Notes: generated by a model from the letters alone, not told the origin. A stretch of DNA of 64,000 nt from Sedimentisphaerales bacterium (GCA_963708075.1 OY970194.1:6784001-6848000), one strand, 5' to 3'. Positions 2,711 through 33,107 are shown, counted from the stretch's first letter. Numbers and translations are program-made.

Positions 2711-2774
2711 TTCGCAAAATGGCGAGAGAAAGACGTAATTGAGGAAGGCCTGAGCACTGGCGGCGAGGTAGAAT
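2711..2774 (+). promoter_or_regulatory. Putative AraC/XylR-type activator site plus -10 box, upstream of GH127
   Basis: TTCGCAAAATGGCGAGAGAAAGACGTAA (2711-2738; half-sites 21 bp apart), then 30 nt, then TAGAAT (2769-2774). Confidence 0.7.
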
Positions 2775-2840
2775 GGGCCGGACCGGCTCAGGGATGAGTC
2801 GAGCCGGATGATTGGGTCGGGACTTTTGGAGAGAAAGACG

Positions 2841-5282
2841 ATGGCAAGTTCTGGAGAGATGACCAGAAGCATGCGGTTGTGGAGAGTTGTCGTAGGCGTC
2901 GGCTGGATTGCGGCCGTGATGCCGACGGCTGCGTGGGGCACGGTGCCTTTGGAGAAGGATTCGAAGGTCGCAGTTGCGTCGAAGGTTTCCCTCAAGGCGT
3001 ATGCATTCGACTTGGAGGACGTGCGGCTGCTCGATGGGCCGTTCAAGGCGGCGATGGAACGGGACGCCGCTTACTTGCTGACGCTGGAGCCGGACCGGTT
3101 GTTGCATCGGTTTCGGCTGTATGCGGGGCTGGAGCCTCGTGCACCGATCTACGGTGGCTGGGAGACCATGGGTGTCTCCGGGCACTCGCTCGGACACTAC
3201 CTGTCGGCCTGTGCGATGATGTATGCCTCGACGGGGGACGAGCGGTTTTGCGAGCGGGTCAAGTACACCGTGGATGAATTGGAGGCTTGTCAGAACGCCA
3301 ACGGCAATGGATATGTAGGTGGCATACAGGACGGCAAGCGGGTCTTCGCCGAGGTGGCGGCGGGGGACATTCGCTCCCAGGGCTTCGATCTCAACGGCCT
3401 GTGGGTTCCCTGGTATACGGAGCACAAGCTCTTTGCGGGGCTGCTCGATGCATACCGATATTGCCGCAACGACAAGGCGCTGTCGGTGGCCCGCAAGCTG
3501 GGCGACTGGGTTGGGGACGTTGTCGGCAAGCTCAATGAGGAGCAGGTCCAGAAGATGCTGGCCTGTGAGCACGGTGGTATGAATGAGGTGCTGGTGGAAC
3601 TGTACGCGATCACGGGCGAGGAGAAGTACTTGAAGCTGTCCCGGCGGTTCCATCACAAAGCGGTGCTCGATCCGCTCGCGGACAGGCAGGATCGTCTGCC
3701 CGGGCTGCATGGCAATACTCAAATCCCCAAGGTTATCGGTGTCGCGCGTCGCTACGAGGTTACGGCCGACGCAACGGACCGTACTATTGCCGAGTTCTTC
3801 TGGGATCGGGTCGTGCACCATCATTCCTATGTCATCGGCGGCCACGGCGAGCACGAACATTTCGGCCCGGCGGATAAGCTCAGTGATCGTCTGTCCTCCG
3901 AGACCTGTGAGACCTGCAACACGTACAACATGCTGAAGCTGACCCGGCACCTCTTTGCCTGGCGCGCGACAGCCGAGTACGCCGATTACTACGAGCGGGC
4001 CCTCTACAATCACATCCTGGCCTCGCAGGACCCCAATACCGGCATGATGTGTTACTTCGTGCCGCTCAAGGCGGGCGAGTACAAACGCTACTCCAATCCG
4101 TTCGACAACTTCACCTGCTGTCACGGCACGGGCATGGAGAACCACGCCAAGTACGGCGACAGCATCTACTTCCACGACGACACGGGCCTGTTTGTCAATC
4201 TCTTCATCCCGTCCGAGCTGAACTGGAAGGCCAAGGGCCTCAAGGTTAGGCAGGAGACGAAGTTCCCCGTCGAGGATACGACGACGTTGACAGTCTCGTG
4301 CGACAAGCCGGTCAAGCTGGCGATTCGAATTCGCTGTCCGGGGTGGGCGACGCAGCCGCTGCAAGTGAAGCTCAACGGAAAGGCCATGAAATCCAAGGTG
4401 GAGCAGGGCGGTTACGCCGTACTGAACAGGAGATGGAAGAGTGGGGACAAGATCGAGGTCCGGATCCCGATGGGACTTCGACTGGAATCGATGCCGGACA
4501 ATCCGAAGCGGGCAGCTATCCTCTATGGCCCGGTTGTTCTGGCGGGCGATCTCGGACCCGTCGAGAAGGCAGCCTCGGACTCTGTGGTCGTGGATGAGTA
4601 CAGCTTGACGGTGCTGGTCACGGGGGATAAGCCGCTGCAGGATTGGCTGGTGCGAATGGAGGACCGGCCGCTGGGCTTCGAGACGTATAACGTGGGTCGC
4701 CCGCGTGACGTGGAGCTGATCCCATTCTACGAGGTGCACCACCGCCGTTACGGCGTGTACTGGGATTTCCTCACCGTCGAGCAATGGGAGAAACGCTACG
4801 CCGATTCTCTCGTGGAATTGAAGCGGCTTCGCGAATTGAAGGCCCGAACGATCGACCTCCTGCGGATCGGCGAGATGCAGCCGGAGCGGGACCACAACGT
4901 CGCCGGCGAGAAGACAGGGGCCGGCGAGTTCAACGGCCGCAAATTCCGCCACGCCACCGACGGCGGCTGGTTCTCCTTCGAGATGGCAGTCCTGCCGGAG
5001 GAGCCCGCGGAACTGCTCTGCACTTTCTGGGGCAGCGAGCAGGGGCCGCGAACGTTCGATATCCTTATCGACGGCACGAAGATCGCCGAGCAGTCGCTGA
5101 GCAACGATCGCCCCGGTGAATTCGTCGACGTCGCGTACCCGATTCCAGCCGACCTGACCAGGGGGAAGCAGAAGGTGACTGTGAAGCTGCAGGCCCGTCC
5201 CGGCAATTTCGCCGGCGGCCTCTTCGGCTGTCGCACGACGAAGAGAACCGCAACGCAGGGTCCTGCACCCGCCCCCAAGTAG
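2841..5282 (+). CDS. GH127/GH146-type beta-L-arabinofuranosidase, secreted, with C-terminal beta-sandwich domains
   Basis: YGGWE..G..GHSLGHYLSA, EHGGMNE, ETCNTYNMLKL, YYERALYNHIL, CCHGTG motifs; signal peptide. Start uncertain (2808-2871). Confidence 0.9.
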   Translation: MASSGEMTRSMRLWRVVVGVGWIAAVMPTAAWGTVPLEKDSKVAVASKVSLKAYAFDLEDVRLLDGPFKAAMERDAAYLLTLEPDRLLHRFRLYAGLEPRAPIYGGWETMGVSGHSLGHYLSACAMMYASTGDERFCERVKYTVDELEACQNANGNGYVGGIQDGKRVFAEVAAGDIRSQGFDLNGLWVPWYTEHKLFAGLLDAYRYCRNDKALSVARKLGDWVGDVVGKLNEEQVQKMLACEHGGMNEVLVELYAITGEEKYLKLSRRFHHKAVLDPLADRQDRLPGLHGNTQIPKVIGVARRYEVTADATDRTIAEFFWDRVVHHHSYVIGGHGEHEHFGPADKLSDRLSSETCETCNTYNMLKLTRHLFAWRATAEYADYYERALYNHILASQDPNTGMMCYFVPLKAGEYKRYSNPFDNFTCCHGTGMENHAKYGDSIYFHDDTGLFVNLFIPSELNWKAKGLKVRQETKFPVEDTTTLTVSCDKPVKLAIRIRCPGWATQPLQVKLNGKAMKSKVEQGGYAVLNRRWKSGDKIEVRIPMGLRLESMPDNPKRAAILYGPVVLAGDLGPVEKAASDSVVVDEYSLTVLVTGDKPLQDWLVRMEDRPLGFETYNVGRPRDVELIPFYEVHHRRYGVYWDFLTVEQWEKRYADSLVELKRLRELKARTIDLLRIGEMQPERDHNVAGEKTGAGEFNGRKFRHATDGGWFSFEMAVLPEEPAELLCTFWGSEQGPRTFDILIDGTKIAEQSLSNDRPGEFVDVAYPIPADLTRGKQKVTVKLQARPGNFAGGLFGCRTTKRTATQGPAPAPK

Positions 5283-5598: not shown

Positions 5599-8500
5599 TC
5601 ACGGCTTGATCACCTGGATGTCGTCGATGTACAGCTTGCCTGTGCCGTCGACGCTTGGGGCCTTGCGGTCACCCACGCCGATGTACATCTTCTTGATCGT
5701 CCTGGCGTTCACGCCTGTGAATTGGCTCAGCGGGATTTTCCACTGCGTCCACTCCGAGGTGACGGTCGCGTTCGCATCCGGGTTGTTCACGACGACCAGT
5801 TTGCCGCCGTTGTCCTGCAGGGCCACGTAGAAGGTCCCCGGATCGTTGCCCGGATGATCGACGCCGATGTCCGCCACCTGCCATGTGCCGGTGACGCTGC
5901 CGGTGGTACTGACATCCGAGAACTCGGCGATCGTGATTGCGCCGGCGTTCTGAGCCGTCAGGCACAGACCGATGTACACGCTGTTGTTCATCGTAATGTC
6001 GTGCTGCGACCGGGTCGCGTCGGTGCCGACGATGGACCAGGTCTTGCCGTCGGCGGAGTGTTCGGCCTTGAACGTGTTGCCCGTGCGGGTGATTCTCGCC
6101 CAGTACGGAGCTATCAGCCCGGCCTGATTGACCTGGTCGCTGGCGTCGCCCGTGAAGACTCGCCATGGGAAGGATACTCCGTTGCCCGGCGTCAGGACCG
6201 TAGTGGCATGCGGCGATTCAGCCGTCAGCGAGTCACGGATCATCACGCCGGCCTTGGTCCAACTGCTCGTCATCAGTATGCTGTTGACCTTGACAGTCAT
6301 GGAGCCATCGCCGGTGAGCCGCTTGAAGGCGAAGCGGAACTGGTCGGCGTTGTTCCAGATGTCGTTGCCGGAGGCGCTCATGGTGATCACGGAGCCGTTA
6401 TCCGCGAAGGCGATTGGATTGCCCCGGAACCACAGGCTCAGATCGGTCACGCCGTTCAGCGTCCAGTCCTGCGGAGCCTCCCAGGTCCGCACGATCTCCG
6501 AGTAGTACGGAGTAATGACGTTGTTGTATTCCACGGGCATCGACTGCCTGCCGCCATGAACGATGCTGGTTTCCATGATATCGCCCAGCGTGGGATCGTA
6601 GCCGACCATGGCCCCCGTGGTGTTGCCCGGATCGCCGGTCGGGAAGAAGTCATCGGGGGAGAAGCCCCAGCCGTCGATCCAGGTCTGGAAGACGCGGAAT
6701 GGCGAGCTATTGGTATAGCCCTCGAACTCATCCACGATGAGATAGTCCGGGACGGTGAATCCCCAGACGCTGCCTTTGTGGACGGTCGTCCCGTCGGCCT
6801 CGACCTCATCGATGCGCCAGAAGTACTGTCCGCCGCCGAAGGCGACCAGCCCCGCGGAGGCGAAGCTGGTGCCGGCCTGCCGGCCTTTGTACTCGGGCGA
6901 GCTCGCGCTAGCTGCCTTCACAGCGGCTTTGTCGGTGCCGAGGTACACGTCGTGCTGCGCGGCTGTTTCTCCCGCCGACCAGCTCAGCATGGCGGCATCG
7001 CGAATGTCGACATTGGCGCCCACCACCGGCTGCGGATTCCAGGCCAGCAGCGGGTCGCCCCGCATCGCCTGTTTGACTTCCTCCGGCGTCAGCGCCTTGT
7101 TGAAGATGCGGACGTCGTCCACGGCGCCGTCCCAGAACTCCACTATGTCGTTGACCTGCCGCCCGATGTGAGCGCGGCTCGGGACGAGACTCCAGTTCTT
7201 CGGGGCCGAGGCCACCTCGATGCCATCGGCATACAACCGGGCGGTGGTTCCATCATAGGTCACGCAGATATGGTGCCAGACATCCGTCTCCCAGAAATTG
7301 GCTTTGAATATGTCAGCCCCAGCCCCATAGCCGCCGCCGTACAGATCCGTTCCATTGATGCCGATGAACAAGGCCGTGCCCACGCCCGGCGAGCCATAGC
7401 TGGCGATCCACCGCCAGCCGGGGGCGATGCTGTCGGTCCTGGCCCAGCCGCACATGCTGCGGGGCGAGGTCCCGGAGGCCCAGGTCTGCGGATTGCCGAG
7501 GTCCACGTAGTCATCGTTGCCATCAAGCTCCAGCGCGTCCCCGTAGCAGCCCTCGACCCATGTGGGGCCGCCTCTGAGCTCGCCATAGATATCCCAGCCG
7601 GAGTAGTCTACCGCCGTGCCGGACTTCTCATCGTCCAGCTTCCACCAGCCGACCAGGTTGGGATCGACCTTTACAGGCACAGGCCGGATGGTGAAGCCCC
7701 AGACCTCGCCTGTCACTCTGCTGCCGCTCACCACTTCATCCACACGCCAGTAGTACGTGGCGCCGCGAGTCAGGGTGCCGGGTTCGTACGAGAACGTTGG
7801 CTGGTCTGTCGCCTTCTTCGTGTCCCCTGTGCCCGCCTCAACGGCTGCACGATCCGTGCCGAAGTACACGTCGTGTCCAAATGCGTTCAAGCCCGGCGAC
7901 CACTCGAGCACTGTGTTTGGATCGATGTAACCAGCGCCATCGGCGGGCTTGGGCGCCCAGGCCTTCTCGGGAGTCATGAAGAAGCTCCATACGTCGCCTT
8001 TGTGCACGGTGCCAGTGGCCTCGATCGCATCCACTCGCCAGTAGTACCTCTGTCCCGGCACCATGGGATCCTTAGGGAGGCAAAACTTGAACATAGCCGA
8101 CTGGTGGGCCACGAGGAGATTCGCTTCCGTCAGGTCGGGCGTCGTGCCGAGGTACACATCCTCGAAGAGGGCTGTTTCGCCGGGCGTCCACATGAAGTAC
8201 CCGACGAACGTGCCTGCCGAGTTATTGGCCGGATTAGGATCGCGTGCTTTCACTTTCGGCGGGACGAGAGCTTTTACCTCGGCAGCCTTGAGCGCGTGGT
8301 CGTAGAGGCGCACGTCATCGATAGCGCCGTTCCAAAACTCGGCATAGTTGTTCACCTGCCGGCCGATATGGGCCCGGCCCAGGACCAGATTCCAATTCTT
8401 TCCCATGCTTGCGGCTTCGCGGCCGTTGACGTAGGCTTTGGCGATCGATCCATCATAGGTCACGGCCACGTGGACCCATTCGCCCACTTGCCAGGCATTG

Positions 8501-8928
8501 GCCACGCTGAGATCGTCGCCGTAACCTCCGACATACAGTGTGCTTCCATTCAAGCCGATGAACATGGCGAGGCTGGTACCCTCCGACCCATAGGCGGCGA
8601 TCCACCGGTAACCCGACGCGACAGTATTCGTCTTGCCCCACCCGCACAGCGAGCGCGGCGACTTGCCCGAGGGCCAGCCCGCGGGATTGCCGAAATCGAC
8701 GTAGTCGTCGACGCCATCGAAGTCCAGTCCGCCGCCCATGCCGTCCATGCCGACTGTCCAGGTCGGACCGCCGATCAGGGTGCCGTTGAAGCCGTTGCCG
8801 CTGGAGTCACTGGCCACTGTACCCGACCCGTCATCCAGCTTCCAGTGCGCTATCAGTTTCGCCGGGGCGACGCTCGTTAGCCCCAACACCAGACACAGGG
8901 AGACTAAAAGAATCGATCGCTTGCACAT
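5599..8928 (-). CDS. Large secreted protein, 1109 aa: 2x LamG/ConA-like, FN3/Ig-like YYWRVDE repeats, C-terminal carbohydrate-binding-like domain with an inserted ConA-like domain
   Basis: Signal peptide; AHWKLDD...G.IDDVRLY LamG motifs; HDVY.G / YYWRVDE...VW.F repeats; C-terminal W..WKIPLS.F...IGVGD...LYIDDI; GGAGG RBS. Confidence 0.88.
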   Translation of the reverse strand: MCKRSILLVSLCLVLGLTSVAPAKLIAHWKLDDGSGTVASDSSGNGFNGTLIGGPTWTVGMDGMGGGLDFDGVDDYVDFGNPAGWPSGKSPRSLCGWGKTNTVASGYRWIAAYGSEGTSLAMFIGLNGSTLYVGGYGDDLSVANAWQVGEWVHVAVTYDGSIAKAYVNGREAASMGKNWNLVLGRAHIGRQVNNYAEFWNGAIDDVRLYDHALKAAEVKALVPPKVKARDPNPANNSAGTFVGYFMWTPGETALFEDVYLGTTPDLTEANLLVAHQSAMFKFCLPKDPMVPGQRYYWRVDAIEATGTVHKGDVWSFFMTPEKAWAPKPADGAGYIDPNTVLEWSPGLNAFGHDVYFGTDRAAVEAGTGDTKKATDQPTFSYEPGTLTRGATYYWRVDEVVSGSRVTGEVWGFTIRPVPVKVDPNLVGWWKLDDEKSGTAVDYSGWDIYGELRGGPTWVEGCYGDALELDGNDDYVDLGNPQTWASGTSPRSMCGWARTDSIAPGWRWIASYGSPGVGTALFIGINGTDLYGGGYGAGADIFKANFWETDVWHHICVTYDGTTARLYADGIEVASAPKNWSLVPSRAHIGRQVNDIVEFWDGAVDDVRIFNKALTPEEVKQAMRGDPLLAWNPQPVVGANVDIRDAAMLSWSAGETAAQHDVYLGTDKAAVKAASASSPEYKGRQAGTSFASAGLVAFGGGQYFWRIDEVEADGTTVHKGSVWGFTVPDYLIVDEFEGYTNSSPFRVFQTWIDGWGFSPDDFFPTGDPGNTTGAMVGYDPTLGDIMETSIVHGGRQSMPVEYNNVITPYYSEIVRTWEAPQDWTLNGVTDLSLWFRGNPIAFADNGSVITMSASGNDIWNNADQFRFAFKRLTGDGSMTVKVNSILMTSSWTKAGVMIRDSLTAESPHATTVLTPGNGVSFPWRVFTGDASDQVNQAGLIAPYWARITRTGNTFKAEHSADGKTWSIVGTDATRSQHDITMNNSVYIGLCLTAQNAGAITIAEFSDVSTTGSVTGTWQVADIGVDHPGNDPGTFYVALQDNGGKLVVVNNPDANATVTSEWTQWKIPLSQFTGVNARTIKKMYIGVGDRKAPSVDGTGKLYIDDIQVIKP

Positions 8929-9269: not shown

Positions 9270-12200
9270 TTACGGTGTGACCGGTGCGGGCCGGCTCAGG
9301 CCGATGTCATCGATGTAAACCAGACCGTCGCCGCCTGCCACAGGCTTCTTGCGGTCGCCGACCCCGATGTACATCTTCTTTACAGACTTCATGTTCACGC
9401 CGGTGAAGGCTGTGAGCGGGATATTCCATGCGCTCCAACCCTCACTGAGCAGGATGTTGGCGTCCGGATGGACGACAACGGCGCTGCGGTTGTTCCAGTC
9501 CTGGACCACCACATACAGCGGCATGGCGTCCTCGTTGCTGCGCTGGGCGATGCCGATGTCCTCGACAGTCCAGGCGCCGGTGACGTTGCCGGTGGTGGCG
9601 ATATTGGAGAACTCGAACTCGCGGACCTGGTTGGCCGCGTGTGAGGTCACCGCGATGCCGATCATGACCGGGCCGGTCATGGTGACCGTCTGCGGCGTGC
9701 CCTGTTGGGCCCATGTGACGCCTTCATCGCGGGAGAAGTAGCCGGTGAAGGTATCCCCGACGCGTACCAGCTTGACCCAGACCGGCACAGCGACCTTCGG
9801 AGTCGGCGTGCTTTGCGATGCGGGATAGGTTGCGTCCGCCGTGACCCGCCACTGGAAGGTGAGGCCGCCGCCGTCGCCGCCTGTCGCGGCAACCATGGCA
9901 TTGACGGAGCCCGCCGTGTTATTTTGGCGGATCATGACGCCGCCCTTGGCCCAGCGATTCGTGCCGACGCCGTTGCTGTCCACACGGGCGATGATCGTAC
10001 CGTCGCCATTGAGGGTCTTGTAGGCATAGCGGAACTGATCGGCCGCATTCCAGATATCCGTGCCGGCGCCGCTGAGACTGAAGCTGCTTTCACTGGTCTT
10101 CACGAACTTGCGCGGATTGCCGTGGATGTGGAGGATGACGGCATTGACGTCCTCGATCGTCCAGTCCTGTGGCTCCGTCCAGGTCCGCTCGGTTCTCAGA
10201 GTAGTTCGGCGAGCCGGAGTTGGCATAGTACAGGGGCATGGACTGAGCGCCGCTGTGACGCTGTCCTCTCTCGGCGATGTCGCCGTTGTAGTAGGTGCTT
10301 TCCGGGGTCCAGATATCATGTCCGACGCCTGCGCCGGTGTTGTTGCCGGGATAGGCCTTGACGAAATCATCCTCGGAATAGCCGAAGCCATCGAGCCAGG
10401 TCTGGAATATCCTGTTCGGTGAGTCATTCTTGAAGCTCTCGAAATTCTCGATGATCAGCCAATCGGTGACTCTGAAGTTCCAGATGCGTCCCTTGACAAT
10501 CTCGCCGCTGGCCAGGACTTCGTCTACTCGCCAGTAGTACGTGTCGTTCCAGTCGAGAACCGGGTCAGGCGTGTAGCTGTTGGCGTCGACGCGACCACGA
10601 TAGATTCCCGCCGCATCCGACGCGTTGGCATCCTGCACCACCGTGGAATCAGTGCCGAGGTAGACGTCATGATGCACGGCGCCGTCGCCCGCCTGCCACG
10701 TGAGGGGCACCAGGTGCGGGGCATCGTCGACTCTGCCCACGGTCGGAGTCGGGTCCCATGCCTGCCTTGGATCGGTCCGCTCATAGAGATACTGGACCTC
10801 TTCCGGCGTCAGGGCCTTGTTGTACAGGCGGAAGTCATCCATGAGGCCATCGAAGCGGTAACTGCTGTAGACGCCGATCTGGAACAGGAGGGTCGCGACC
10901 GTATTCAGGGTCCTTGCCGCCGTGGCGACGACCGTGTTATTGGCATAACACGTGCTTGTCGTGCCGTCGTAGACCAGGACGAGATGCACCCAGGTATTCT
11001 GCGACGTGTAGGTGAAATCCTGATCGGCGCTATAGTACTGGATGCGCCACTGGTTGTTGCCGCCGCGTGTGCGAAGGCTGAAATTCTGCGAGGCGACGCG
11101 GGCGCCGGTCTCGAAGATGCCGCCCTCCTTGAAGTTGTGTGTATAGACCCACACGCTGACTGACTTTGGCTTGGCGCCGTCGATCCCCAGGTCCACGGCG
11201 TTCTTGCCGATATCGACGGTGTCGTCCATGCCATCGAACTCAAGGGCGCCGCCGGCCATGCCGGCCGCCGGTTGGAGGCCGCCATTGGTGCCGGCGCTAA
11301 TCGTGCCGTGGTAGCCATGTCCGGAGTAATCGACGGCCGTGCCCATGGCTTCGTCGAACTTCCACCAGCCGACCAGATTCGGATCGGCAATCGTCAGGGG
11401 CAGCGTCATGAACTTCCAGACCGGGCCGGGGACCTTATTGTTTGCCCCGTCGATCGCATCCACGCGCCAGTAGTAGATCGTGTCGCCTTTTAGCCCAACG
11501 GGGCTGAAGGCAGCCACCGGCGATGTGACCTTGAATGTGTCGCCGGTTCCCGCGATGACGTCGGCTTCGTTTTCGCCGAAGTACACGTCATACATAAACG
11601 CGTTCCTTCCCGGCTTCCATGTGAGCGTCGCATCCGTGAAAACACCGCGGGCATCATTGGCCGGTGTCGGGCCCCAGGCGCTCTCCAGTGGAGCCCTGAA
11701 GGACCACACGTCGCCTGTGTAAACCGTTGTGCCGTCGGACTCGACCTCGTCCACTCGCCAATAGTAGGTTGTGCCCGCCTGAAGCGCGGTCGGAATGACA
11801 TACATCGAGGTCGCCGCCGCCGTAGCCGGGAGCTGCACGATGAACGGGAGATTGGGCTCGGTCCCGAAGTACAGCTTGTGCCATGTCGCCGTCACGCCCT
11901 TGGTCCAGGTCATGATCGCGATGATCTGGCCGAGTTCTCCGTTGACGGGCGAGGGATTGGTGGCTTTCAGGTCGCCCGGCCGGATCCAGGGGGACAGATA
12001 GGTGCCGGCGATGATCGTCTGGGTCGTGCCGATGACCGGCCCGCTCCACGCGACGCGCAGGCGGTCGCCGCCTGAGCCATCTCTGTGCAGTGCCTCGATG
12101 TAGTACTTTTTGCCTGCCTTCAGGGTGACGGCGGCGGACTTCTGCTCTGGGAACTTTGTCCACTCGGTCGCGCCGCTGTAGCCGGTGACTTGGCTGATCA

Positions 12201-12558
12201 TGCCCCTGTTGGCCGGATTCTCATCCGTGCTCAGCCACAACTGACTCTGGTCGTCGCTGGTGATCCAGAAGGTGTAGTCGCCGTCGGCCGGCGGGTGGAC
12301 ATAGCCGCGGACTCGGGTCACATAGTACTCGGCCCGGCCGTCTATGCCATCGAAACTCGTCCGCCACTGGCTGACGGTGGGGTTATCCGGATATCTCCAG
12401 AGTCGCCCGTCCGTGATTTGGGCCATATTGGTGGCACTTCTGGCGCCGTCGAACCATTCAAACAGGATATTGCCCTTGCCGATGTCGGCGGCCAAGATCG
12501 GACCGGCCGACCACAGGATGACGAGGGCAATAACGATGTGCTGCCATTTCTTGCTCAT
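9270..12558 (-). CDS. Large secreted protein (PA14 + FN3-like + LamG + C-terminal CBM-like domain), split by a +1 frameshift near 10194
   Basis: MSKKWQ start with GAGGAGG RBS; PA14 motif GDYTFWITSDDQSQLWLS. ORFs 10090-12708 and 9270-10427 join as NYSE-T-ERTW if one A is removed from GAGAACCGAG. Confidence 0.85.
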
Positions 12559-21730: not shown

Positions 21731-22170
21731 GCCACAAACCCGCAATCACCGAAGAACATCTCCAGATGACTTCAACGAAGCGCCATAGACTCCCGCCGCA
21801 GAAAGAGTCAGAAACAACAAATCACACGAATTGCCCCGAAAAGGATGAAAATGGCATAGGCCGCTCGTAGGGTGGGTCCTTGACCCACGCGGTTGCCCAT
21901 GCGAAACGTTCTTGACCGAATTCGCCGCAGCGAGTGCAGGTATTGACGGCAAGCCAGACGGGAAACCAGGGGAAACTATGGTCCGTGTCGAATGGCACCT
22001 ATAGGGCCATGCCCCCCGCGATCCTTATAGGATGGCCCGGCGCATGCTCATGCGATACGGATAGGATTTCGGCAGACGTGAGGCAACCCTTCCTGTGGCG
22101 TTCAGAGAAGGAGTCACGCCACGATGGAAGGACTGGCCTACGAGCCAAGACTCATGGTATGATGAACGTA

Positions 22171-22941: not shown

Positions 22942-23114
22942 TGTCTTGAGACCCAACAAGAAAGCCCGGCATAAAACCGAGCTTCGCTCGCTTCACTATC
23001 GTAGCCGCTACTTCACCAGGCGCACCCGCCTTTGATCGTCGTGGAAATCTGGACACCATACTCACTTCGGATGCCGAGATAGGTAAGATGTCGCGGGGAT
23101 TCCCAGGAAGGAAA

Positions 23115-24083
23115 TCACACGGAGCGTCGTTTACCTGAGCTGATCACGATCGGACCGGCCGAGCGGTCGTTGACGACGATCGTGAACATCGTATCTTCCC
23201 TGCAACTTGTGCGGCAGGCGGCCTGGACAGCGGGGAGGTTCTCTCCGAAGGCCGTGAAGGTACGCTCCGAGTCGTCGTTCCTGGTATACACGCCATTGGC
23301 ATCGGGACCCTGCTGGTGGGCTCCCTTGCGGAGAAAAGACTTGCTGAAGTTGCCTTCGATCATGTATTTCGCGCCCTGCTCCGAAGCCACCGTCGGGCTG
23401 CCCTTGAGAATGCGCTTCGCGGTCTTCTCGCAGTCCGCCTGCTTGCCGCGGATGCGGACTTTGACGCCACCCTCGATGAACTCCATGGTGACTTTCTGCC
23501 CAATGGCGGCGATGGCCTCGGCCCCGGTGATCTTCTCGAATCCACCGGCCGGCGCTTCCGCGGCGGGCGCGACCTCGGGCTGCGGCTTCTGAGCCGTCGC
23601 CTTCGTCTCGATGGGCTCGCCCGGATTCCGGAGTTCGCCACGGAAAACGAGTCCGTGTTGCCCTTCTTCGGAGGTCAGGCTGCCAGGGCGTCCGACGAAG
23701 TGGGCCACGCGCGTCAGCAGGCTCTTCGGCGTGGCGCTCAGCGGTGTGAGCTTGAAGCGACCGTCGGGTTTGCGATCGAGGACGATCGAGCCGGTCTCCT
23801 CAGGCTCTCCGGCGTAGATCCCCCAGACGATGACCCTACCGGTCTTCACGACGGTGACAGGATTCCCCCTCATGACCAGCCCGCCGAAGGTCGCCGCGAG
23901 CTCACGATTGGGACTCGTAATCCAGGCGTTGTCTTTCTCGATCAGCAAGAACGCATGACGCTCGCTCAGCGGACGCTGAAGTCTCGCTTTGCTCTTAGGT
24001 ATCTTCACGTCTTCTGCCAAGGCCCCAATGACTAATGACAAAACGGATAACGACGATTGAAGAGAGTATATCGTCAGCGGCAT
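23115..24083 (-). CDS. Hypothetical protein, possibly 5'-truncated
   Basis: Long ORF with coding-like codon use from about 23980 downwards; the 5' part is AT-rich and repeat-like; no motif recognised. Confidence 0.45.
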   Translation of the reverse strand: MPLTIYSLQSSLSVLSLVIGALAEDVKIPKSKARLQRPLSERHAFLLIEKDNAWITSPNRELAATFGGLVMRGNPVTVVKTGRVIVWGIYAGEPEETGSIVLDRKPDGRFKLTPLSATPKSLLTRVAHFVGRPGSLTSEEGQHGLVFRGELRNPGEPIETKATAQKPQPEVAPAAEAPAGGFEKITGAEAIAAIGQKVTMEFIEGGVKVRIRGKQADCEKTAKRILKGSPTVASEQGAKYMIEGNFSKSFLRKGAHQQGPDANGVYTRNDDSERTFTAFGENLPAVQAACRTSCREDTMFTIVVNDRSAGPIVISSGKRRSV

Positions 24084-24306
24084 CAAGAATCCAGAAGAAA
24101 TGGAGACTACGGCAACGCCCCAGAGGGTCACACAGAGGGTCACATGGGGTCAGAGCTTGATTAGCGGTTGTTGGTTGATCGTTGTTGGTTCTCAGTTGAG
24201 AAGCCTTCATACTACTACTTGTCAGAATCTTGTTTTCTTGCGCAAATCTTGGTTGCGGCCGCAGGCCGCGCTGGGCTCTTCGAGGTCTTCGTGGCTGAAA
24301 GGACCT

Positions 24307-24469
24307 GGATTCCCGCCTTCGCGGGAATGACGTACATGCGGTCTTTCTCGCGTGTTTCGCGTATTTCGCGGTTAAATCGCAGTTGTCGGGGGTCAGTTGG
24401 CGGTTGTCAGTTGAAAACCTGGATTTCCGACCCCGATCAGGTCGAGGGCAGGCCCTGCGCGGGAATGAC
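24307..24469. repeat. Two GTCATTCCCGCG-type REP palindromes, the second carrying a nested insert
   Basis: GGATTCCCGCCTTCGCGGGAATGAC (24307-24331); GGATTTCCG[accccgatcaggtcgagggcagg]CCCTGCGCGGGAATGAC (24421-24469). Confidence 0.75.
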
Positions 24470-24615: not shown

Positions 24616-24678
24616 TTCGTATTTTGGTGAAAAGAAAACGCAAGATAACCTTTGCAATCGTGACGCAAAATGGATAAT
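24616..24678 (+). promoter_or_regulatory. Putative activator site plus -10 box for the ara operon
   Basis: TTCGTATTTTGGTGAAAAGAAAACGCAA (24616-24643), 29 nt, then GATAAT; an extra CGCAAAATGG half-site abuts the -10 box. Confidence 0.65.
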
Positions 24679-24819: not shown

Positions 24820-26040
24820 ATGGTTGAGGTCAAGTCGCAGTTCATTCGTCTGAGTCTTGTCGCAGCGATCGTGGGTATTGCCGGGTGCGAGATGAGGCCG
24901 ATGCACCGCATGACGCCGAGAGCCGAGCGTCGTGAGTCGGCGGCTGCGAAGCCGGTGGCTACGGATTCCAAGTCGCCCACCCTGAATATTGAGACCAAGC
25001 CATTCGGCGAGACAGCAGAGGGCCAGCCGGTCCGGCTGTACTCGCTGCGCAACGCCAACGGGCTGACAGCGGACATCATGACCTACGGGGCCATCGTCGT
25101 CTCGCTCCAGACGCCCGATCGCGACGGACGGATGGACGACATCGTCCTCGGTTATGACAACCTGCAGGACTACATCAAGAACAGTCCCTACTTCGGCGCC
25201 ATCGTGGGACGCTACGGCAACCGGATTGCCAAGGGCAAATTCACGCTCGACGGCACCGAGTACACTCTCGCCACCAACAATAACAACCTGAACCACCTGC
25301 ACGGCGGGGTCAAGGGCTTCGACAAAGTCGTGTGGGACGATGAGCCCGTGTGGAAAGCCGACGCCGTCGGCGTCAAGCTCAGCTACCTGAGCAAGGACGG
25401 TGAGGAAGGCTATCCCGGCAACCTCAAGGCCACCGTCACGTACCTGCTGACGAATAAGAATGAGCTGAGGATCGACTACGAAGCAACGACGGACAAGCCC
25501 ACGCCCGTCAATCTGACGCATCATGGCTACTTCAACCTCACCGGCGGAGAGCGCGACATTCTCGGCCACGTCCTCGTCCTCAACGCGGCCCAATTCACCC
25601 CCGTCGATGAGGGCCTGATCCCCACGGGCGAGCTTACCCCTGTCCGGGGTACGCCGATGGATTTCACCAAACCCGCAGAGATCGGGGCGAGGATCAATAA
25701 CGGGTATCAGCAGCTCAAGTTCGGCGGCGGATACGACCACAACTGGGTCTTGGACAAGCGAGGCAGCGGAATGACTTTGGCCGCTCGTGTCTATGAGCCG
25801 ACGACAGGGCGGATCATGGAGATCCTGACCCTGGAGCCCGGCATCCAGTTCTACTCCGGCAACTTCCTCGACGGCACGATCACCGGCAAAGAGGGCAAGG
25901 TCTACAAGCATCGCTGGGGCTTCTGCCTGGAGACGCAGCACTTCCCGGACTCGCCCAATAAGCCGAACTTCCCGTCCACAATCCTGCGGCCGGGCGAGAA
26001 ATACGAGACAACGACGATCTATCGCTTCTCAGCAAAATAA
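24820..26040 (+). CDS. galM: Aldose 1-epimerase (mutarotase) with predicted lipoprotein signal
   Basis: GRYGNRIA, HLHGG, NLTHHGYFNL, GYDHNW, FCLETQHFPDSPN; lipobox IAG-C. Confidence 0.93.
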   Translation: MVEVKSQFIRLSLVAAIVGIAGCEMRPMHRMTPRAERRESAAAKPVATDSKSPTLNIETKPFGETAEGQPVRLYSLRNANGLTADIMTYGAIVVSLQTPDRDGRMDDIVLGYDNLQDYIKNSPYFGAIVGRYGNRIAKGKFTLDGTEYTLATNNNNLNHLHGGVKGFDKVVWDDEPVWKADAVGVKLSYLSKDGEEGYPGNLKATVTYLLTNKNELRIDYEATTDKPTPVNLTHHGYFNLTGGERDILGHVLVLNAAQFTPVDEGLIPTGELTPVRGTPMDFTKPAEIGARINNGYQQLKFGGGYDHNWVLDKRGSGMTLAARVYEPTTGRIMEILTLEPGIQFYSGNFLDGTITGKEGKVYKHRWGFCLETQHFPDSPNKPNFPSTILRPGEKYETTTIYRFSAK

Positions 26041-26089: not shown

Positions 26090-27880
<1,791 letters not shown>

Positions 27881-28040: not shown

Positions 28041-29714
28041 ATGAAGTATGCGATAGGTTTGGACTACGGCACGAACAGCGTGCGGTGCGTGATTGTCGAT
28101 ACCGCCGACGGGCGGGAGCTGGGCACGTGCGTCTTTGAGTATCCGACGGGCGAGGCGGGGATCATCCTTGACCCGGCGGACCATAATCTGGCCCGGCAGA
28201 ATCCGGCCGATTATCTCAAGGGTGCGGAGGTCACAATCGCCGGGGCGATTGCCCAGGCTCGCAAGGCCGATTCGCGATTCGATCCGAAGGACGTCGTCGG
28301 CGTCGGCGTGGATACGACGGGCTCGACGCCTCTGCCGGTGGACAGGAACGGCACGCCGCTGGCGATGCTGGATCGGTTCAAGGACAATCCCAACGCACAC
28401 GCGTGGCTGTGGAAGGACCACACCGGCTACGCGGAGGCGGCGGAAATCACGGCCCAAGCCCGCAGGGAGCGACCGCAGTACCTGGACAAGTGCGGCGGGA
28501 CGTATTCCTCCGAGTGGTTCTTCAGCAAGATTCTCCACTGCCTGCGTGTGGACCCCGAGACTTTTGATGCCGCGTACACGTGGGTCGAGCACGCCGACTG
28601 GCTGCCGGCGGTGCTGACCGGGACCGAGGCCCCGGACAAGCTTCGGCGATGCCGCTGTGCGGCGGGGCACAAGGCCATGTTCAACGACACCTGGGGCGGC
28701 TATCCGGACGCCGAGTTTCTCTCCGGGCTCGATCCTAAGCTCGGCAAGCTTCGCGGGACGCTGAGCAACCAGACCTACGCGGTGGACAAAGCGGCCGGAA
28801 AACTGACGCATGAGTGGGCGAAGAGATTCGGACTGCCCGCGGGCATCCCCGTGGCCATGGGGGCGTTCGACGCGCACCTTGGCGCCGTCGGATCGGGCAT
28901 CCGCAGCGGCGTGCTCGTCAAGATCATCGGCACCAGCACCTGCGACATGGTGGTGTCGCCGACCGGCGTGAGCCTGGCGGATGTCCCCGGCATCTGCGGC
29001 ATCGTGGATGGCTCAATTCTGCCCGGCTACTACGGGCTGGAGGCGGGCCAGTCGGCGGTGGGGGACATCTTCAACTGGTTCGTCAACTACATCCAGCCGG
29101 GCGGCAAAGAGGCCGGCTCGCACCAGTCCCTTACAGACAAAGCGGCGCGTCTCAAGCCGGGCCAGTCCGGCCTGCTTGCGCTCGATTGGAACAACGGCAA
29201 CCGCACGATTCTCGTCGATCAGCGGCTTACGGGACTCATCCTCGGCCAGACGCTGCACACCCGGCCCGAGGAAATCTACCGGGCGCTGGTCGAGGCCACG
29301 GCCTTCGGGGCGCTGACGATCATCAACCGATTCGAAGAGTACGGCGTCAAGATCAGCGAGGTCGTCAACTGTGGCGGCATCGCCGAGAAGAACGCCATGC
29401 TCATGCAGATTTACGCCGATGTCACCGGACGAGAGATGAAGGTCTCTCGCTCGGCCCAGACCTGTGCCTTGGGCTCGGCCGTCGCGGCCGCTGTCGTCGG
29501 CGGGGCGTACCCGGACTTCGCTCACGCTCAGGCGGCCATGTGCGGCATCAAGGAGACCACTTACAAGCCGATCGCGAAGAACCACAAGGTCTATCGGCAA
29601 CTGTACAAGCTTTACCGGCGGCTCCACGACGGCTTCGGAATGGCCAAGAAGACCCTGGCCATGGGCGGCGTGATGAAAGAGCTGCTGGACATCAAAGAGA
29701 AAGCCAACGCGTAG
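28041..29714 (+). CDS. araB: Ribulokinase
   Basis: IGLDYGT.SVR, DTTGSTP, LWKDHT, YSSEWF, GTSTCD, EAGQSAVGD, LDW.NGNRT. Confidence 0.93.
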   Translation: MKYAIGLDYGTNSVRCVIVDTADGRELGTCVFEYPTGEAGIILDPADHNLARQNPADYLKGAEVTIAGAIAQARKADSRFDPKDVVGVGVDTTGSTPLPVDRNGTPLAMLDRFKDNPNAHAWLWKDHTGYAEAAEITAQARRERPQYLDKCGGTYSSEWFFSKILHCLRVDPETFDAAYTWVEHADWLPAVLTGTEAPDKLRRCRCAAGHKAMFNDTWGGYPDAEFLSGLDPKLGKLRGTLSNQTYAVDKAAGKLTHEWAKRFGLPAGIPVAMGAFDAHLGAVGSGIRSGVLVKIIGTSTCDMVVSPTGVSLADVPGICGIVDGSILPGYYGLEAGQSAVGDIFNWFVNYIQPGGKEAGSHQSLTDKAARLKPGQSGLLALDWNNGNRTILVDQRLTGLILGQTLHTRPEEIYRALVEATAFGALTIINRFEEYGVKISEVVNCGGIAEKNAMLMQIYADVTGREMKVSRSAQTCALGSAVAAAVVGGAYPDFAHAQAAMCGIKETTYKPIAKNHKVYRQLYKLYRRLHDGFGMAKKTLAMGGVMKELLDIKEKANA

Positions 29715-29716: not shown

Positions 29717-30406
29717 ATGCACGAGAAGCTCAAACAACACGTCTATGAGGCCAATCTCGACCTGCAGAAGCAGGGCCTGGTCGTCTTTACCTGGGGCAAC
29801 GTCAGCGGCATCGACCGCGCCGCCGGCATCGTCGCCATCAAGCCCAGCGGCGTCAACTACGCGGACCTCACGCCCGAGAGCATCGTCCTGGTCGATCTGC
29901 AGGGCAAGGTGGTGGACGGGAACCTGCGGCCGTCCTCAGACACCCCGACGCATCTGGAACTCTACCGCAATTTCCAGGGCATCGGCGGCGTCTGTCACAC
30001 GCACTCGATGTACGCCACGATGTGGGCCCAGGCCGAGCAGGGGATTCCCTGCTTTGGAACGACGCACGCCGATCATTTCTATGGCCCCGTGCCCGTGACC
30101 GACCCGCTGACGCGGGAGGAGATCGATGGTGCGTACGAGGAGAACACGGGCCGGGTCATCATCCGGCGGTTCCACGACATCGACCCGCTCCACATGCCCG
30201 CCGTGCTGGTCGCCAATCACGGGCCGTTCACCTGGGGCATCAGCCCGGATCGGGCCGTCGAGAACGCCGTCGTCCTGGAACAAGTGGCGAAGATGGCCTT
30301 CGGGACCATCTCCATCAACTGGCATCAAACCGCAATTTTACGAGCGCTTCTGGATAAGCATTATCTGCGAAAACATGGAACGAACGCATATTATGGGCAA
30401 CCATAG
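29717..30406 (+). CDS. araD: L-ribulose-5-phosphate 4-epimerase
   Basis: TWGNVS, IKPSGV, PSSDTPTH, HTHS, GTTHADHF, HYLRKHG.NAYYGQ; ATG just after the araB stop. Confidence 0.93.
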   Translation: MHEKLKQHVYEANLDLQKQGLVVFTWGNVSGIDRAAGIVAIKPSGVNYADLTPESIVLVDLQGKVVDGNLRPSSDTPTHLELYRNFQGIGGVCHTHSMYATMWAQAEQGIPCFGTTHADHFYGPVPVTDPLTREEIDGAYEENTGRVIIRRFHDIDPLHMPAVLVANHGPFTWGISPDRAVENAVVLEQVAKMAFGTISINWHQTAILRALLDKHYLRKHGTNAYYGQP

Positions 30407-30418: not shown

Positions 30419-31825
30419 ATGAAGAAAGTGACGTTTGGTGTGATTGTCGGCAACCGCGGGTTCTTCCCGGACGTGCTGGCGAAAGAGGGCCGCAAGGACA
30501 TTCTCGACGTGCTCAAGAGGAACGGCTACGGGGCCGTCGCGCTGTCGACGACCGACACGAAGTACGGGGCCGTCGAGACCTTCGATGAGGCGAAGAAATG
30601 CGCGGAGCTGTTCGCGTCGAACGCGGGCCAGATCGACGGCATCATCGTGACGCTGCCGAACTTCGGCGACGAGCGGGGCATCGCCGAGACGATCAAGCGC
30701 AGCGGCCTGAGCGTGCCGATCCTCATCCAGGCCGAGGAGGACGTCGCGGGCCAGATGAAGATCGACCGGCGACGCGATTCTTTCTGCGGAAAAATCAGCG
30801 CCTGCAACAACCTGCGCCAGGCGGGCATCCCGTTCACGCTCACTCGCTCGCACACGGTAAAGGTCCAGTCGCCCGAGTTCAAGGCGGACCTGGACCGGTT
30901 CGCCGCCGTCTGCCGGATTATTCGCGGGCTCAAGAATGTCCGCTTCGGCGCGATCGGTTCGCGACCGGCAGCCTTTAACACTGTCCGCTACAGCGAAAAG
31001 ATTCTGGAGTTCGCAGGCATCGCCATCGAGCCGATCGATTTGTTTGAGGTACTCGGCAAGGTGGACCGGCTCGCCGATAACGATAGAGCCGTTAAAACGA
31101 AGCTCAACGCGATCAAGAAGTACACGATCACCGACTCGATTCCCGCCGATGGCCTGCTGAAGATGGCCAAGTTCGGCGCCGTCGTGGATGGATGGATCAA
31201 GAGCAATCATCTCGTCGGCACGGCAGTCCAGTGCTGGACGGCCCTGGAGGAGTACTTCGGCATCGTGCCCTGCACGTTAATGAGCATGATGAGCGAGTCG
31301 CTGCTGCCCAGCGCCTGCGAGGTCGATGTCACCGGCCTGCTCGCCATGTACATCCTGCAACTGGCCGGCGGCACGCCCAGCGCACTGCTCGACTGGAACA
31401 ACAACGTCGAGGGTGACCCGAACAAGTGCGTCCTGTTCCATTGCAGCAATCTGCCCAAGTCGTTCTTCCAGAGCGACCGGATGGATTATCAGGAGATCAT
31501 CGCCGGGTCGGTGGGCAAGGAGAACACGTACGGCACGATTGTCGGCCGGATCAAGGCCAGCCCCGCCACCTTCTGCCGCACGATGACGGACGACACGGAC
31601 GGCGTGCTTCGCGTCTATGTGGGCCAGGGCCAATTCACGGATGACGCGCTCGACACGTTCGGCGGCTACGGTGTCATGGAGATCGCGAATCTGCAGACGC
31701 TCCTGAGTTACATCTGCCGGATGGGCTTCGAGCATCACGTGGCCGTGAGCATGTCCGAGACGGCCGACGCCATCGCCGAGGCATTGGGCAATTATCTCGC
31801 GTGGGACGTGTACCATCATTCGTGA
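30419..31825 (+). CDS. L-fucose/L-arabinose isomerase-family protein (FucI-like fold, not canonical AraA)
   Basis: NFGDE, RRDSFCGKIS, QCW, ACEVD, FHCSN, FEHHVA; position within the araBD operon. Confidence 0.82.
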   Translation: MKKVTFGVIVGNRGFFPDVLAKEGRKDILDVLKRNGYGAVALSTTDTKYGAVETFDEAKKCAELFASNAGQIDGIIVTLPNFGDERGIAETIKRSGLSVPILIQAEEDVAGQMKIDRRRDSFCGKISACNNLRQAGIPFTLTRSHTVKVQSPEFKADLDRFAAVCRIIRGLKNVRFGAIGSRPAAFNTVRYSEKILEFAGIAIEPIDLFEVLGKVDRLADNDRAVKTKLNAIKKYTITDSIPADGLLKMAKFGAVVDGWIKSNHLVGTAVQCWTALEEYFGIVPCTLMSMMSESLLPSACEVDVTGLLAMYILQLAGGTPSALLDWNNNVEGDPNKCVLFHCSNLPKSFFQSDRMDYQEIIAGSVGKENTYGTIVGRIKASPATFCRTMTDDTDGVLRVYVGQGQFTDDALDTFGGYGVMEIANLQTLLSYICRMGFEHHVAVSMSETADAIAEALGNYLAWDVYHHS

Positions 31826-31916
31826 TTGCGGATTGATGATTGCGGATTGAGAACCTTGCCGCCCAGCCTGGCATCCGCAATGGAAGGCCTGTTCCCGCGA
31901 AGTATGCATGTGAAAT

Positions 31917-33107
31917 ATGGCTGACAGGATCCCAGAAGGATTAGCCGAACCACCCCGTGCTACGAGGGCGCCGTCGGTGCTGCTGTTCGTGGAAACGTCG
32001 CGCGAGTTCGGGCGCGGGCTGCTGCACGGCATCGCACGGTACTCGCGGCTGCACGGTCCCTGGCGGGTGTATCGCTGGCCGGGTGCGCTGGACTCGTTGC
32101 TGCCGGAGTGGAAGCACCTGAAGATCGACGGGGCCATTGTCCGCGACGTCAAGGCGGTGGAGGGCATGGCCCATTCCGGCCTGCCCGTGATTTTCGCCCA
32201 GCACAACAAGGACAGCTATGCGCCGTTCCCTGCGATCATCACCGATAGCGCCGCCATCGGGTACATGGCCGCCGAGCACTTTCTGGACCGCGGATTCCAG
32301 AATTTCGCCTACTGCGGGCTCGAGGAGCTTCTCTGGTCGAGAAGGCGTGCAGAGCACTTCGCTCAGCGTCTGACACAGGCCGGTTTCGAGGTCAATGCAT
32401 ACAGCCAGCCGGTCTCGAGGGCCGGCCGCAATTCCGGCAAGGGGCAGAGCCGCCTTGCCGACTGGCTGCGACGTCTGCCCAAGCCGGTGGCGGTCATGTG
32501 CTGCAATGATGACCGGGCCCTGCAGGTCGTCGAGGCCTGCAAGGCGGCGGACCTTCGCGTGCCCGACGACGTGGCCGTGCTCGGCGTCGACAACGACGTG
32601 CTTGTGTGCGACCTGGCCGACCCGCCCATCTCCAGCATTGCACTGGACACGGAGACTGCCGGACATGAGGCCGCCAGGCTGCTGGACCAGCTCATGAAGG
32701 GCGGCGAAATGGCCGGCCAGGAGATCCCGGTCCGCCCCACCCATATCGTGACGCGCATGAGCACGGACATCCTGACCGTGACCGATTCGGATGTCGCCGC
32801 AGCGCTGCGATTCATCCGCTGCAATCCAAACCGCCTGATCCAGGTGGACGACGTGGTCGAGGCGACGAACGTGTCGCGCCGCGTGCTGGAGAAGCGATTC
32901 AAGGCGATCCTGCGCCGCTCCGTGCACCAGGAAATCCGGAGGATTCGCGTCAACAACATCATCCCGCTGCTGGTGGGCACGGATATGAGCATCACGGAGA
33001 TCGCCCTGCACTGTGGTTTCGACGGCGTCGAGCACATCTCCCGCTACTTCCGCAAGGAAACCGGCGCCAGCCTCCGAGACTACCGCCGCCAACACGCGCC
33101 AAGATAG
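31917..33107 (+). CDS. XylR-type regulator (periplasmic-binding-protein-like domain plus AraC HTH)
   Basis: LPKPVAVMCCND.RA, VP.DVAVLGVDND, C-terminal SRR.LEKRF...IALHCGF....YFRK..G. Confidence 0.9.
   Translation: MADRIPEGLAEPPRATRAPSVLLFVETSREFGRGLLHGIARYSRLHGPWRVYRWPGALDSLLPEWKHLKIDGAIVRDVKAVEGMAHSGLPVIFAQHNKDSYAPFPAIITDSAAIGYMAAEHFLDRGFQNFAYCGLEELLWSRRRAEHFAQRLTQAGFEVNAYSQPVSRAGRNSGKGQSRLADWLRRLPKPVAVMCCNDDRALQVVEACKAADLRVPDDVAVLGVDNDVLVCDLADPPISSIALDTETAGHEAARLLDQLMKGGEMAGQEIPVRPTHIVTRMSTDILTVTDSDVAAALRFIRCNPNRLIQVDDVVEATNVSRRVLEKRFKAILRRSVHQEIRRIRVNNIIPLLVGTDMSITEIALHCGFDGVEHISRYFRKETGASLRDYRRQHAPR

Follow-up and report, generated by a model that had tools for sequence, protein, structure and literature searches.

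A conserved direct-repeat operator suggests co-regulation of a pilin-like gene, secreted multidomain giants and arabinose catabolism in a Sedimentisphaerales bacterium

The 64,000-nucleotide (nt) stretch of DNA considered here, referred to below as the window, comes from a Sedimentisphaerales bacterium (GCA_963708075.1, OY970194.1:6784001-6848000) and is part of one 7.5-Mb contig; the genome is 92.8% complete by markers. Three sets of genes in the window share a 28-bp DNA site, which is the subject of this article: a gene for an enzyme of glycoside hydrolase (GH) family 127; an operon in which a prepilin gene is followed by four secreted giant proteins rich in concanavalin A-like (ConA-like) and carbohydrate-binding module (CBM) domains (5599-18904, minus strand); and an ara operon that closes with the gene for a XylR-type regulator. 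The gene calls made in an initial annotation of this sequence, namely GH127, prepilin, giants, galM, Na+/solute symporter (SSF), ribulokinase, aldolase, isomerase and a regulator with periplasmic-binding-protein and AraC parts, agree with Pfam and NCBIfam. Table 1 lists all of these features.

The site itself matches its pattern exactly at the three positions first proposed for it. No further match occurs in the window with up to three mismatches allowed, and 100 dinucleotide-preserving shuffles gave no match to the 28-bp pattern. The proposed distances to the −10 boxes are likewise correct; the boxes begin 30, 30 and 29 nt past the core of the GH127, prepilin and ara copies, respectively. The repeat unit needs amendment: the spacing of 21 bp between the repeats stands, but the half-site is longer than the CGYA first suggested, and is better described as two copies of wCGCAAnnnTGG.

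Across the whole genome, seven sites fit the 28-bp pattern when up to three mismatches are allowed, and none fits the reversed pattern, used as a control. The scan with a position weight matrix (PWM) that had been proposed as a check was run with a matrix built from these seven sites; it returns eight sites with scores of 36-65 bits, followed by a match of 19.9 bits. Since seven of the eight top sites are the training set, weight attaches to the gap and to the reversed control and not to the scores as such. Each of the eight has a gene downstream toward which it is oriented, and a −10 box follows at a distance of about 30 nt. In total, the genes behind them comprise three GH127 and two GH51-like genes, giants at three loci, one prepilin and the ara operon. 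By content, this is an L-arabinose or arabinan regulon, and the inducer is deduced from that content.

Table 1. Features of the window and of further operator loci in the same genome. Positions refer to the window unless a locus or residues are named; aa: amino acids; ORF: open reading frame; HTH: helix-turn-helix.
Feature	Position	Strand	Evidence or remarks
Operator copy 1 (28-bp core), before GH127	2711..2738	+	one of the eight sites; −10 TAGAAT 2769-2774
GH127 beta-L-arabinofuranosidase-family protein, 824 aa	2808..5282	+	PF07944 (E 1.4e-139), PF20736, DUF6805; hydrophobic signal-like N-terminus
Secreted giant, 1109 aa, last gene of prepilin operon	5599..8928	-	Pfam: Laminin_G_3 (two) and DUF1349-like; signal peptide
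Secreted giant, PA14, Laminin_G_3 and DUF1349-like	9270..12558	-	ORFs 10090-12708 and 9270-10427; probably one gene, indel near 10193
Secreted giant, 1001 aa	13434..16439	-	six modelled beta-sandwich domains
1001-aa giant, first three domains	residues 24-243; 253-341; 352-502		ConA-like; Ig-like; F5/8C (CBM32-like)
1001-aa giant, last three domains	residues 507-603; 640-780; 790-1001		Fn3-like; beta-sandwich; LamG (AbnA-domain-4-like)
Secreted giant	16563..18904	-	ORFs 18467-18952 (signal peptide) and 16563-18632; frameshift near 18630; N-terminus homologous to that of the 1001-aa giant
Prepilin-type protein, 257 aa	19154..19927	-	class III signal, N_methyl, DUF1559 start, two conserved Cys, C-terminal DGH
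Prepilin promoter	20076..20139	-	one of the eight sites; operator copy 2 20112-20139; −35 TTGCGT 20104-20099; 17-nt spacer; −10 GATAAT 20081-20076
Inserted block between the promoters, outside the regulon	20170..24430		high-copy repeat 20170-20680; HNH_3 ORF 20972-21730 (+); RES-domain ORF 21934-22941 (+); unknown ORF 23115-24143 (-)
ara promoter	24616..24678	+	one of the eight sites; operator copy 3 24616-24643; −35-like TTTGCA 24651-24656; −10 GATAAT 24673-24678
Aldose 1-epimerase (galM)	24820..26040	+	PF01263 (E 5.5e-97)
Na+/solute symporter (SSF), predicted arabinose importer	26090..27880	+	Pfam, NCBIfam
Ribulokinase (araB)	28041..29714	+	NF003154, 689.8 bits (equivalog cut-off 428)
Class II aldolase, predicted L-ribulose-5-phosphate 4-epimerase (araD)	29735..30406	+	PF00596, residues 308-495 of ORF 28814-30406; start approximate
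Fucose-isomerase-family isomerase, predicted L-arabinose isomerase	30419..31825	+	PF02952; prediction from operon context
XylR-type regulator, periplasmic-binding-protein-like sensor and AraC-type double HTH	31917..33107	+	Pfam; 4fe7
Genes behind site at L008			LamG/F5-8C giants
Gene behind site at L009			secreted 521-aa two-repeat protein, no known family
Genes behind site at L010			two GH127, then FGE-sulfatase/HZS_alpha genes
Genes behind site at L011			two giants and a GH51-like gene
Gene behind site at L012			GH51-like arabinofuranosidase with 3-keto-disaccharide-hydrolase-like domain
Paralogue operator variants, own genome	L092:407-441 (3.97 Mb); L072:~414-450 (0.71 Mb)

The ninth PWM match, at genome position 693607 before an argininosuccinate-lyase-like gene (the 19.9-bit match), is similar to the operator variant that belongs to the third regulator paralogue (L072) and was left out of the regulon. 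A census of XylR-type operators without a motif, by pairs of the form CGCAA-N16-CGCAA, was also tried and given up: tandem repeats of the 7-mer CCGCAAT filled the list because their period divides 21. These repeats usually have 4-5 units and make up, by eye, about half of the 81 pairs, and a copy lies near window position 42806. The 521-aa protein at L009 (15267-16832 of that locus, minus strand; 7.12 Mb in the genome) stands behind a near-consensus operator copy and consists of two internal repeats of about 250 aa. It matches no Pfam or NCBIfam model and only unnamed clusters in the Atlas, and it has no BLASTP relative among five ORFs downstream of sites in other genomes.

The related genomes that were scanned as a further check are metagenome-assembled genomes of Sedimentisphaerales (Phycisphaerae). 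A strict, 26-nt form of the pattern is present in 20 of the 23 genomes of the same genus. Outside the genus, it is found in none of one sister-genus genome and in one of 16 genomes from other families; the reversed strict pattern matches once over all 41 genomes. Where the downstream ORF was scanned (27 sites), 19 sites are directly followed by an N_methyl prepilin ORF, and the rest stand before LamG/F5-8C proteins, a GH43 or unknowns. Of these 19 prepilin loci, 15 have another site close by, on the opposite strand. The same picture emerges from orthologous loci of the regulator that come with 6.9 kb or more of upstream sequence and whose genomes overlap with those of the prepilin loci: a back-to-back pair of sites, 71-292 bp apart, is found in eight out of ten, one of the other two having an ara-side site only and one having no site. 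From this pair, the conserved layout extends in one direction to the prepilin and then the giants, and in the other to (SSF, araB) isomerase, regulator, GH127, GH51 and GH43. The window departs from the layout of the genus in two respects, in that its prepilin and ara promoters are 4.4 kb apart, and its GH127 gene lies beyond the giants with a site of its own.

Promoter geometry can be derived from 52 distinct sites, eight from the genome itself and 44 from relatives. TTG begins 7 nt past the core in 32 of these and 8 nt past it in 13, and a −10 box of NATAAT type is found 30 nt past the core in 30, giving a 17-nt spacer. The ara-side sites of relatives have TAACTA, TATCTA or TAAAGG at the −10 offset; these were recognised by eye, the regular expression having missed them. 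When the prepilin promoters of 20 genomes are aligned, all 26 invariant columns (26/26) fall within the core, the −35 or the −10 box, while the spacer and the 40 nt upstream vary freely. Computation supports the view that the site is a direct-repeat, activator-type operator adjoining the −35 box. A scan of 18400-25000 for terminator and promoter consensus sequences gave sites no commoner than in shuffles, and no clear terminator past the prepilin. The ara promoter of the window also has an additional consensus half-site, GACGCAAAATGG, at 24662-24673, where it overlaps the −10 box; this could be an autoregulatory or occluding site. GACGCAAAATGG is not found in the ara-side promoters of relatives.

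The product of the regulator gene is the candidate for the protein that recognises these sites. It has an N-terminal sensor domain (PF13377, E 1.3e-39) and a C-terminal HTH region (PF12833, E 8.8e-19, residues 315-392; PF00165, E 8.7e-9), and the suggestion that an AraC/XylR regulator ends the ara operon is borne out by homology to Escherichia coli XylR over the full length (4fe7, E 1.5e-48, residues 19-391). The NCBIfam AraC model matches the HTH region only, below its cut-off. Orthologues with at least 73% identity are present in 22 of the 23 genomes of the genus; G006, the sole genome without one, is also without the site, a single case among genomes that are interrelated. There are only two other XylR-type genes in the genome, one of them frameshifted, and both adjoin a prepilin and LamG/F5-8C giant operon of their own (L092, and L072 with a GH106 gene). 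The prepilin promoters of these two operons carry their own CGCAAA direct-repeat variants with a period of 21 or 22 bp, that of L092 being located 30 nt before GATAAT. The occurrence of three regulators with three operator variants and three prepilin operons is the best evidence available here for assigning the regulator to the site. Upstream of the regulator gene, the isomerase has only a sub-threshold match in NCBIfam, and phmmer found no relative for it in the PDB.

In the reading preferred here, which we consider probable, the 28-bp site at the eight promoters is the operator of this XylR-type activator, which would switch on all of them when L-arabinose is sensed. A regulator dimer would bind both repeats, as E. 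coli XylR does at xylA and xylF, and would recruit RNA polymerase. The effector would be L-arabinose released from arabinan, arabinogalactan or extensin-type glycans. Co-regulation of the prepilin/giant operon with genes for arabinose catabolism and arabinofuranosidases is well supported by genome comparison. Of the original proposal that the prepilin and the lectin-like proteins are co-induced with the arabinose genes, the shared operator, conserved in the genus, is borne out, and induction stays a prediction.

Several points weigh against assigning the site to this activator and to L-arabinose. The GH127 copy has no TTG at the usual −35 offset. Genomes G009 and G014 have the regulator and no match to the strict pattern; with contig ends only 2.4 and 3.4 kb away from it, both cases are uninformative. 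The link between regulator and site is likely, and draws on position, on the paralogue pattern and on analogy; other AraC-family proteins surely exist in the genome, and the effector is guessed from gene content. It is accordingly conceivable, if rather improbable, that another transcription factor binds the site, or that another sugar such as an arabino-oligosaccharide is sensed, the XylR-type gene being a mere passenger in the ara operon. Regulon members without an obvious link to arabinose, namely the protein at L009 and the FGE-sulfatase/HZS_alpha genes at L010, would fit this alternative, but it leaves the synteny of regulator and site pair in eight of ten informative loci, the adjacency of each paralogous regulator to a paralogous operator variant, the joint absence of regulator orthologue and site from G006, and the likeness in layout to E. 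coli XylR without an explanation. More improbable by far is a mobile promoter cassette or repeat as the source of the shared sequence, spread through the genome without any regulation in common. Repeats are numerous in this genome, with a high-copy element adjoining the prepilin site and the CCGCAAT tandem family present; however, the copies of the site are alike in the core and the two hexamers only, with different spacers and flanks, all of them precede functionally related genes, and 20 of 23 species-level genomes retain the site at orthologous promoters.

Like the GH127 protein, the giants begin with a Sec-type signal, and no lipobox or other anchor is seen in any of them. Frameshifts split the ORF pairs of two giants in the window, and each pair probably represents one gene. 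At 10193, independent contigs of the metagenome runs X1 and X2 are short of one base, so that the split at this position is probably an assembly indel and not the mark of a pseudogene. Single frameshifts also split long genes at L008, L010 and L012, affecting giants, GH127 and GH51-like genes across these loci.

Homologues of the 1001-aa giant are abundant: 6602 of 8000 scored candidates reach E <= 1e-10. Most are about 1000 aa long and come from records labelled Sedimentisphaerales, Phycisphaerae or Planctomycetes. Many share the C-terminal 75% only, which indicates a variable N-terminal domain on a conserved core. The AlphaFold 2 (AF2) model of this giant, built from 47 alignment rows, is all-beta, without a barrel or propeller, and has a mean predicted local distance difference test (pLDDT) score of 86.8. 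Residues 791-1000 superpose on domain 4 of the arabinanase AbnA (5ho2/5hon) with Z 26.6 and a root-mean-square deviation of 1.9 Å over 195 residues at 25% identity; the next fold group follows at Z ~22, about 4.5 Z lower. Profile matches include 5hon (E 2.9e-8), 7blg, a CBM32 (E 2.1e-5), and also an S-layer-domain protein. For the N-terminal part there is a likeness to GH43_C2/DUF1349 accessory domains (score 0.93), which is a lead only. No GH family match and no catalytic domain were found in the giants with Pfam and NCBIfam, the N-terminal and 640-780 domains not having been searched on their own. Domain 4 of AbnA binds arabinan with a micromolar Kd, according to the available part of the source (PMC9110388). 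Since the AbnA-4-like module is kept in thousands of members, including those from loci for other sugars, specificity of the giants for arabinan cannot be assumed.

The prepilin has a class III signal of the G/A-F-T-L-x-E type followed by a hydrophobic alpha-1 helix (PF07963; TIGR02532 at 25.2 bits, cut-off 16.3). It scores 37.7 bits against PF07596 (DUF1559; gathering threshold 23.3), with the match confined to profile positions 2-41 of 268. The label 'H-X9-DG prepilin' originally given to it applies in part: it is a prepilin and has the DG(H), but the literal His ten residues before DG is missing, as it is throughout the orthologue group. The AF2 model, from a 54-row alignment and with a mean pLDDT of 82.4, shows a helix (14-64) and a compact head, and Foldseek finds no match for it at E <= 0.001. 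The archaeal bindosome consists of sugar-binding proteins with pilin signals, in which a solute-binding fold follows a class III signal. A comparable role for the head as a solute-binding protein, brought to mind by the Pfam short name SBP_bac_10, was considered and dropped, as no such fold is among the Foldseek and VIA-align matches listed.

Prepilins and giants can also be counted in the genome at large. There are 67 ORFs with class III signals, and 54 of these, 190-460 aa long, fall into 46 clusters. Clusters L071, L079 and L090 are ordinary, complete operons of the type II secretion system (T2SS) or type IV pilus kind. All 54 aligned prepilins match the N-terminal models of GspG, GspH and ComG. 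Machinery is plentiful: prepilin peptidase has three matches, secretin 14 over the cut-off, and GspE/PilB-type (T2SS-E) ATPases more than 20. The giant core occurs at 51 loci forming 40 arrays, and a prepilin lies at most 5 kb upstream on the same strand of six arrays, where about 0.7 would be expected by a rough estimate, an enrichment of about eightfold. As for outer-membrane transport, the absence of SusC/SusD first remarked for the window can be extended to the genome, which has no match to PF07980 (SusD_RagB) or PF00593 (TonB-dependent barrel), with control genomes matched.

How the prepilin and the giants might work together is less clear than their regulation. The Sec-exported giants may bind arabinose glycans via their CBM32-like and AbnA-domain-4-like modules. 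After cleavage by a prepilin peptidase, the prepilin would be incorporated into a type IV filament or T2SS-like system, of which the genome has many, and would there either assist in exporting the giants and enzymes or keep them attached to the surface; this is the least certain step. That the prepilin serves to export or display the co-regulated proteins is no less likely than a part in a fibre for capture and import. A number of findings weigh against such a role of the prepilin: 34 of the 40 giant arrays lack an upstream prepilin; by inspection, GH or CBM/lectin genes clearly follow within three ORFs at only 12 of the 46 prepilin clusters, nine more being ambiguous; and at genome position 4411429 the site lies downstream of two prepilin genes and so drives giants only. 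In addition, TIGR04294, which matches eight of the 54 aligned prepilins at E <= 0.01, finds no match in the window prepilin at E 0.01, and pilins rank first in VIA-align but weakly (PilA4 Z 5.3, type IVb pilin of enterotoxigenic E. coli (ETEC) 4.8, ComP/PilV 4.3, EpsG 3.6).

Two more specific proposals can be weighed against this background. The prepilin may be a cargo-specific pseudopilin of a T2SS-like system that exports giants and arabinofuranosidases from the periplasm, in which case its role would be in export and not in capture or import; we regard this as possible, though doubtful. The Sec-type signals of the giants and GH127, with no visible anchor, the universal match of the prepilins to GspG/GspH/ComG models, the complete T2SS-like operons and the presence of an own prepilin at each XylR-type regulator locus are all consistent with it. 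On the other hand, most secreted giants have no private prepilin, and we know of no cargo-specific major pseudopilins in known T2SSs. The second proposal, which goes back to the initial annotation, is that of a dedicated surface fibre, built from prepilin and giants, for capturing arabinose glycans and moving them over the outer membrane in place of SusC/SusD. It gains from the lack of SusD_RagB and TonB-dependent barrels, from the ample assembly machinery and the 54 prepilin-type ORFs, from the enrichment of prepilins before giant arrays, and from the position of the prepilin at the head of its operon, with the best operator and promoter hexamers. However, pairing is not obligate, since even two giants in the window are without a prepilin; the regulon has no secretin, ATPase or prepilin peptidase genes; its sole transporter is a symporter of monosaccharide type; and the prepilin head has no clear fold relative. 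We therefore hold such a fibre to be unlikely, and less plausible than the pseudopilin.

The inserted block accounts for the unusual distance between two of the promoters; mobile DNA has evidently pushed the prepilin and ara promoters apart in the window. Its high-copy repeat, directly upstream of the prepilin operator, consists of two units of about 180 nt and one of about 150 nt, and a second copy is located at ~43103-43282. With 20140-20980 plus 24140-24620 as probe, blastn returned 229 high-scoring segment pairs (HSPs) across the genome, and contig depth in three metagenome runs is ~160x over the repeat versus 3-4x in the flanks. A contig from run X1 joins 20533 to 24304 and skips 3770 nt, with just 28 nt on one side; this is a faint pointer to a form without the block.

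Beyond the regulon, the window contains a second sugar locus (44046-64000). A gene for an extracytoplasmic function (ECF) sigma factor (51969-52610, minus strand) and one for a FecR-like anti-sigma factor (50140-51972, minus strand) head two giants of about 1000 aa (46978-49977 and 44046-46832, minus strand), with no prepilin. These face a cluster on the plus strand with a GH129-like gene, two GH95-like genes, two GH29 fucosidase genes and a GH97 gene. A sulfatase with a twin-arginine translocation (TAT) signal (1139-3046, minus strand) is divergent from GH127, and a 1276-aa subtilase with FG-GAP repeats is encoded at 38975-42805 (plus strand); neither has an operator copy.

In Planctomycetota, the DUF1559-type pilin-like proteins make up one of the largest paralogue families. 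For Planctopirus limnophila, the accessible part of one study gives 68 copies, two of them essential (PMC10632474). According to a 2024 survey, functional characterisation of carbohydrate-active enzyme (CAZyme) gene clusters is lacking in Planctomycetota; pilins are not mentioned in the part available (PMC11131199). The literature covered, with few subscription journals and no supplements, gave no function for DUF1559 and no pilin-like genes in planctomycete sugar loci. The operator assigns one pilin-like gene, together with secreted multi-CBM proteins of a very large family, to a defined sugar regulon; shared and conserved as it is, it constitutes evidence independent of gene adjacency, which alone is weak. 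The lack of a detectable TonB-dependent transporter sharpens the question of how glycans pass the outer membrane in CAZyme-rich bacteria. It is tempting to speculate that DUF1559-type proteins in general are sugar-specific subunits, each induced by its own regulator and fed into shared type IV filament machines, which together with multi-CBM giants would form an outer-envelope route for glycan capture and entry in planctomycetes without TonB-dependent transporters. We think this generalisation unlikely; if true, it would amount to a pilus-based counterpart of the Sus system of Bacteroidota, in which the locus would serve as the module for arabinan, its operator and inducer being defined. The system offers experimental handles, including a single regulator, a 28-bp site with a predicted inducer, and three paralogous sets of regulator, operator and prepilin for specificity swaps.

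Among known systems, E. coli AraC at araBAD is an arabinose-responsive activator of the AraC family, binding direct repeats 21 bp apart that overlap or abut the −35 box. Its sensor is of the cupin type, whereas that of the regulator described here is periplasmic-binding-protein-like. E. coli XylR (4FE4, 4FE7) is closer, with the same architecture and homology over the full length. In the available part of its description, it binds two sites of ~37 bp, each made up of a pair of direct repeats adjoining the −35 box, at divergent operons (PMC3561964); the xylAB/xylFGH operators are ~360 bp apart, and XylR loops the DNA between them (PMC3561964). The direct-repeat operators next to −35 boxes thus have a close parallel, the divergent pair in relatives being 71-292 bp apart. 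The differences from XylR lie in the half-site (CGCAAnnnTGG versus gaAa-a-a-AAT, again as given in the available part of that source), in the predicted effector (L-arabinose versus D-xylose), and in the position of the regulator gene inside its own putative target operon. The predicted regulon here takes in secreted binding proteins and a pilin-like gene as well.

Polysaccharide utilisation loci (PULs) of Bacteroidota resemble the present case in having one sugar-specific regulon for glycan-binding proteins that are exported, exo-glycosidases, a transporter and a dedicated regulator. In contrast to PULs, this genome has neither SusD nor a TonB-dependent barrel, the binding proteins carry Sec and not lipoprotein signals, a pilin-like gene is present, and the loci are scattered over the chromosome, tied together by the operator instead of by position. 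With the DUF1559/'H-X9-DG' family (PF07596, TIGR04294), the prepilin shares its class III signal, a length of ~260 aa, the many paralogues, a Cys pair and D-G-H; it differs in its short PF07596 match, the missing TIGR04294 match and the missing His. For the LamG domain of the 1001-aa giant, the counterpart in structure is domain 4 of AbnA, a GH43 arabinanase of Geobacillus stearothermophilus, but the module in the giant is not joined to a catalytic domain. The regulator and its operator belong, as a new member, to a known class, and the pilin-like and multi-CBM parts make the regulon a variant among sugar-utilisation systems that is new. What is added for these parts is an operator shared with the arabinose operon, in other words cis-regulatory evidence and a defined module predicted to be inducible.

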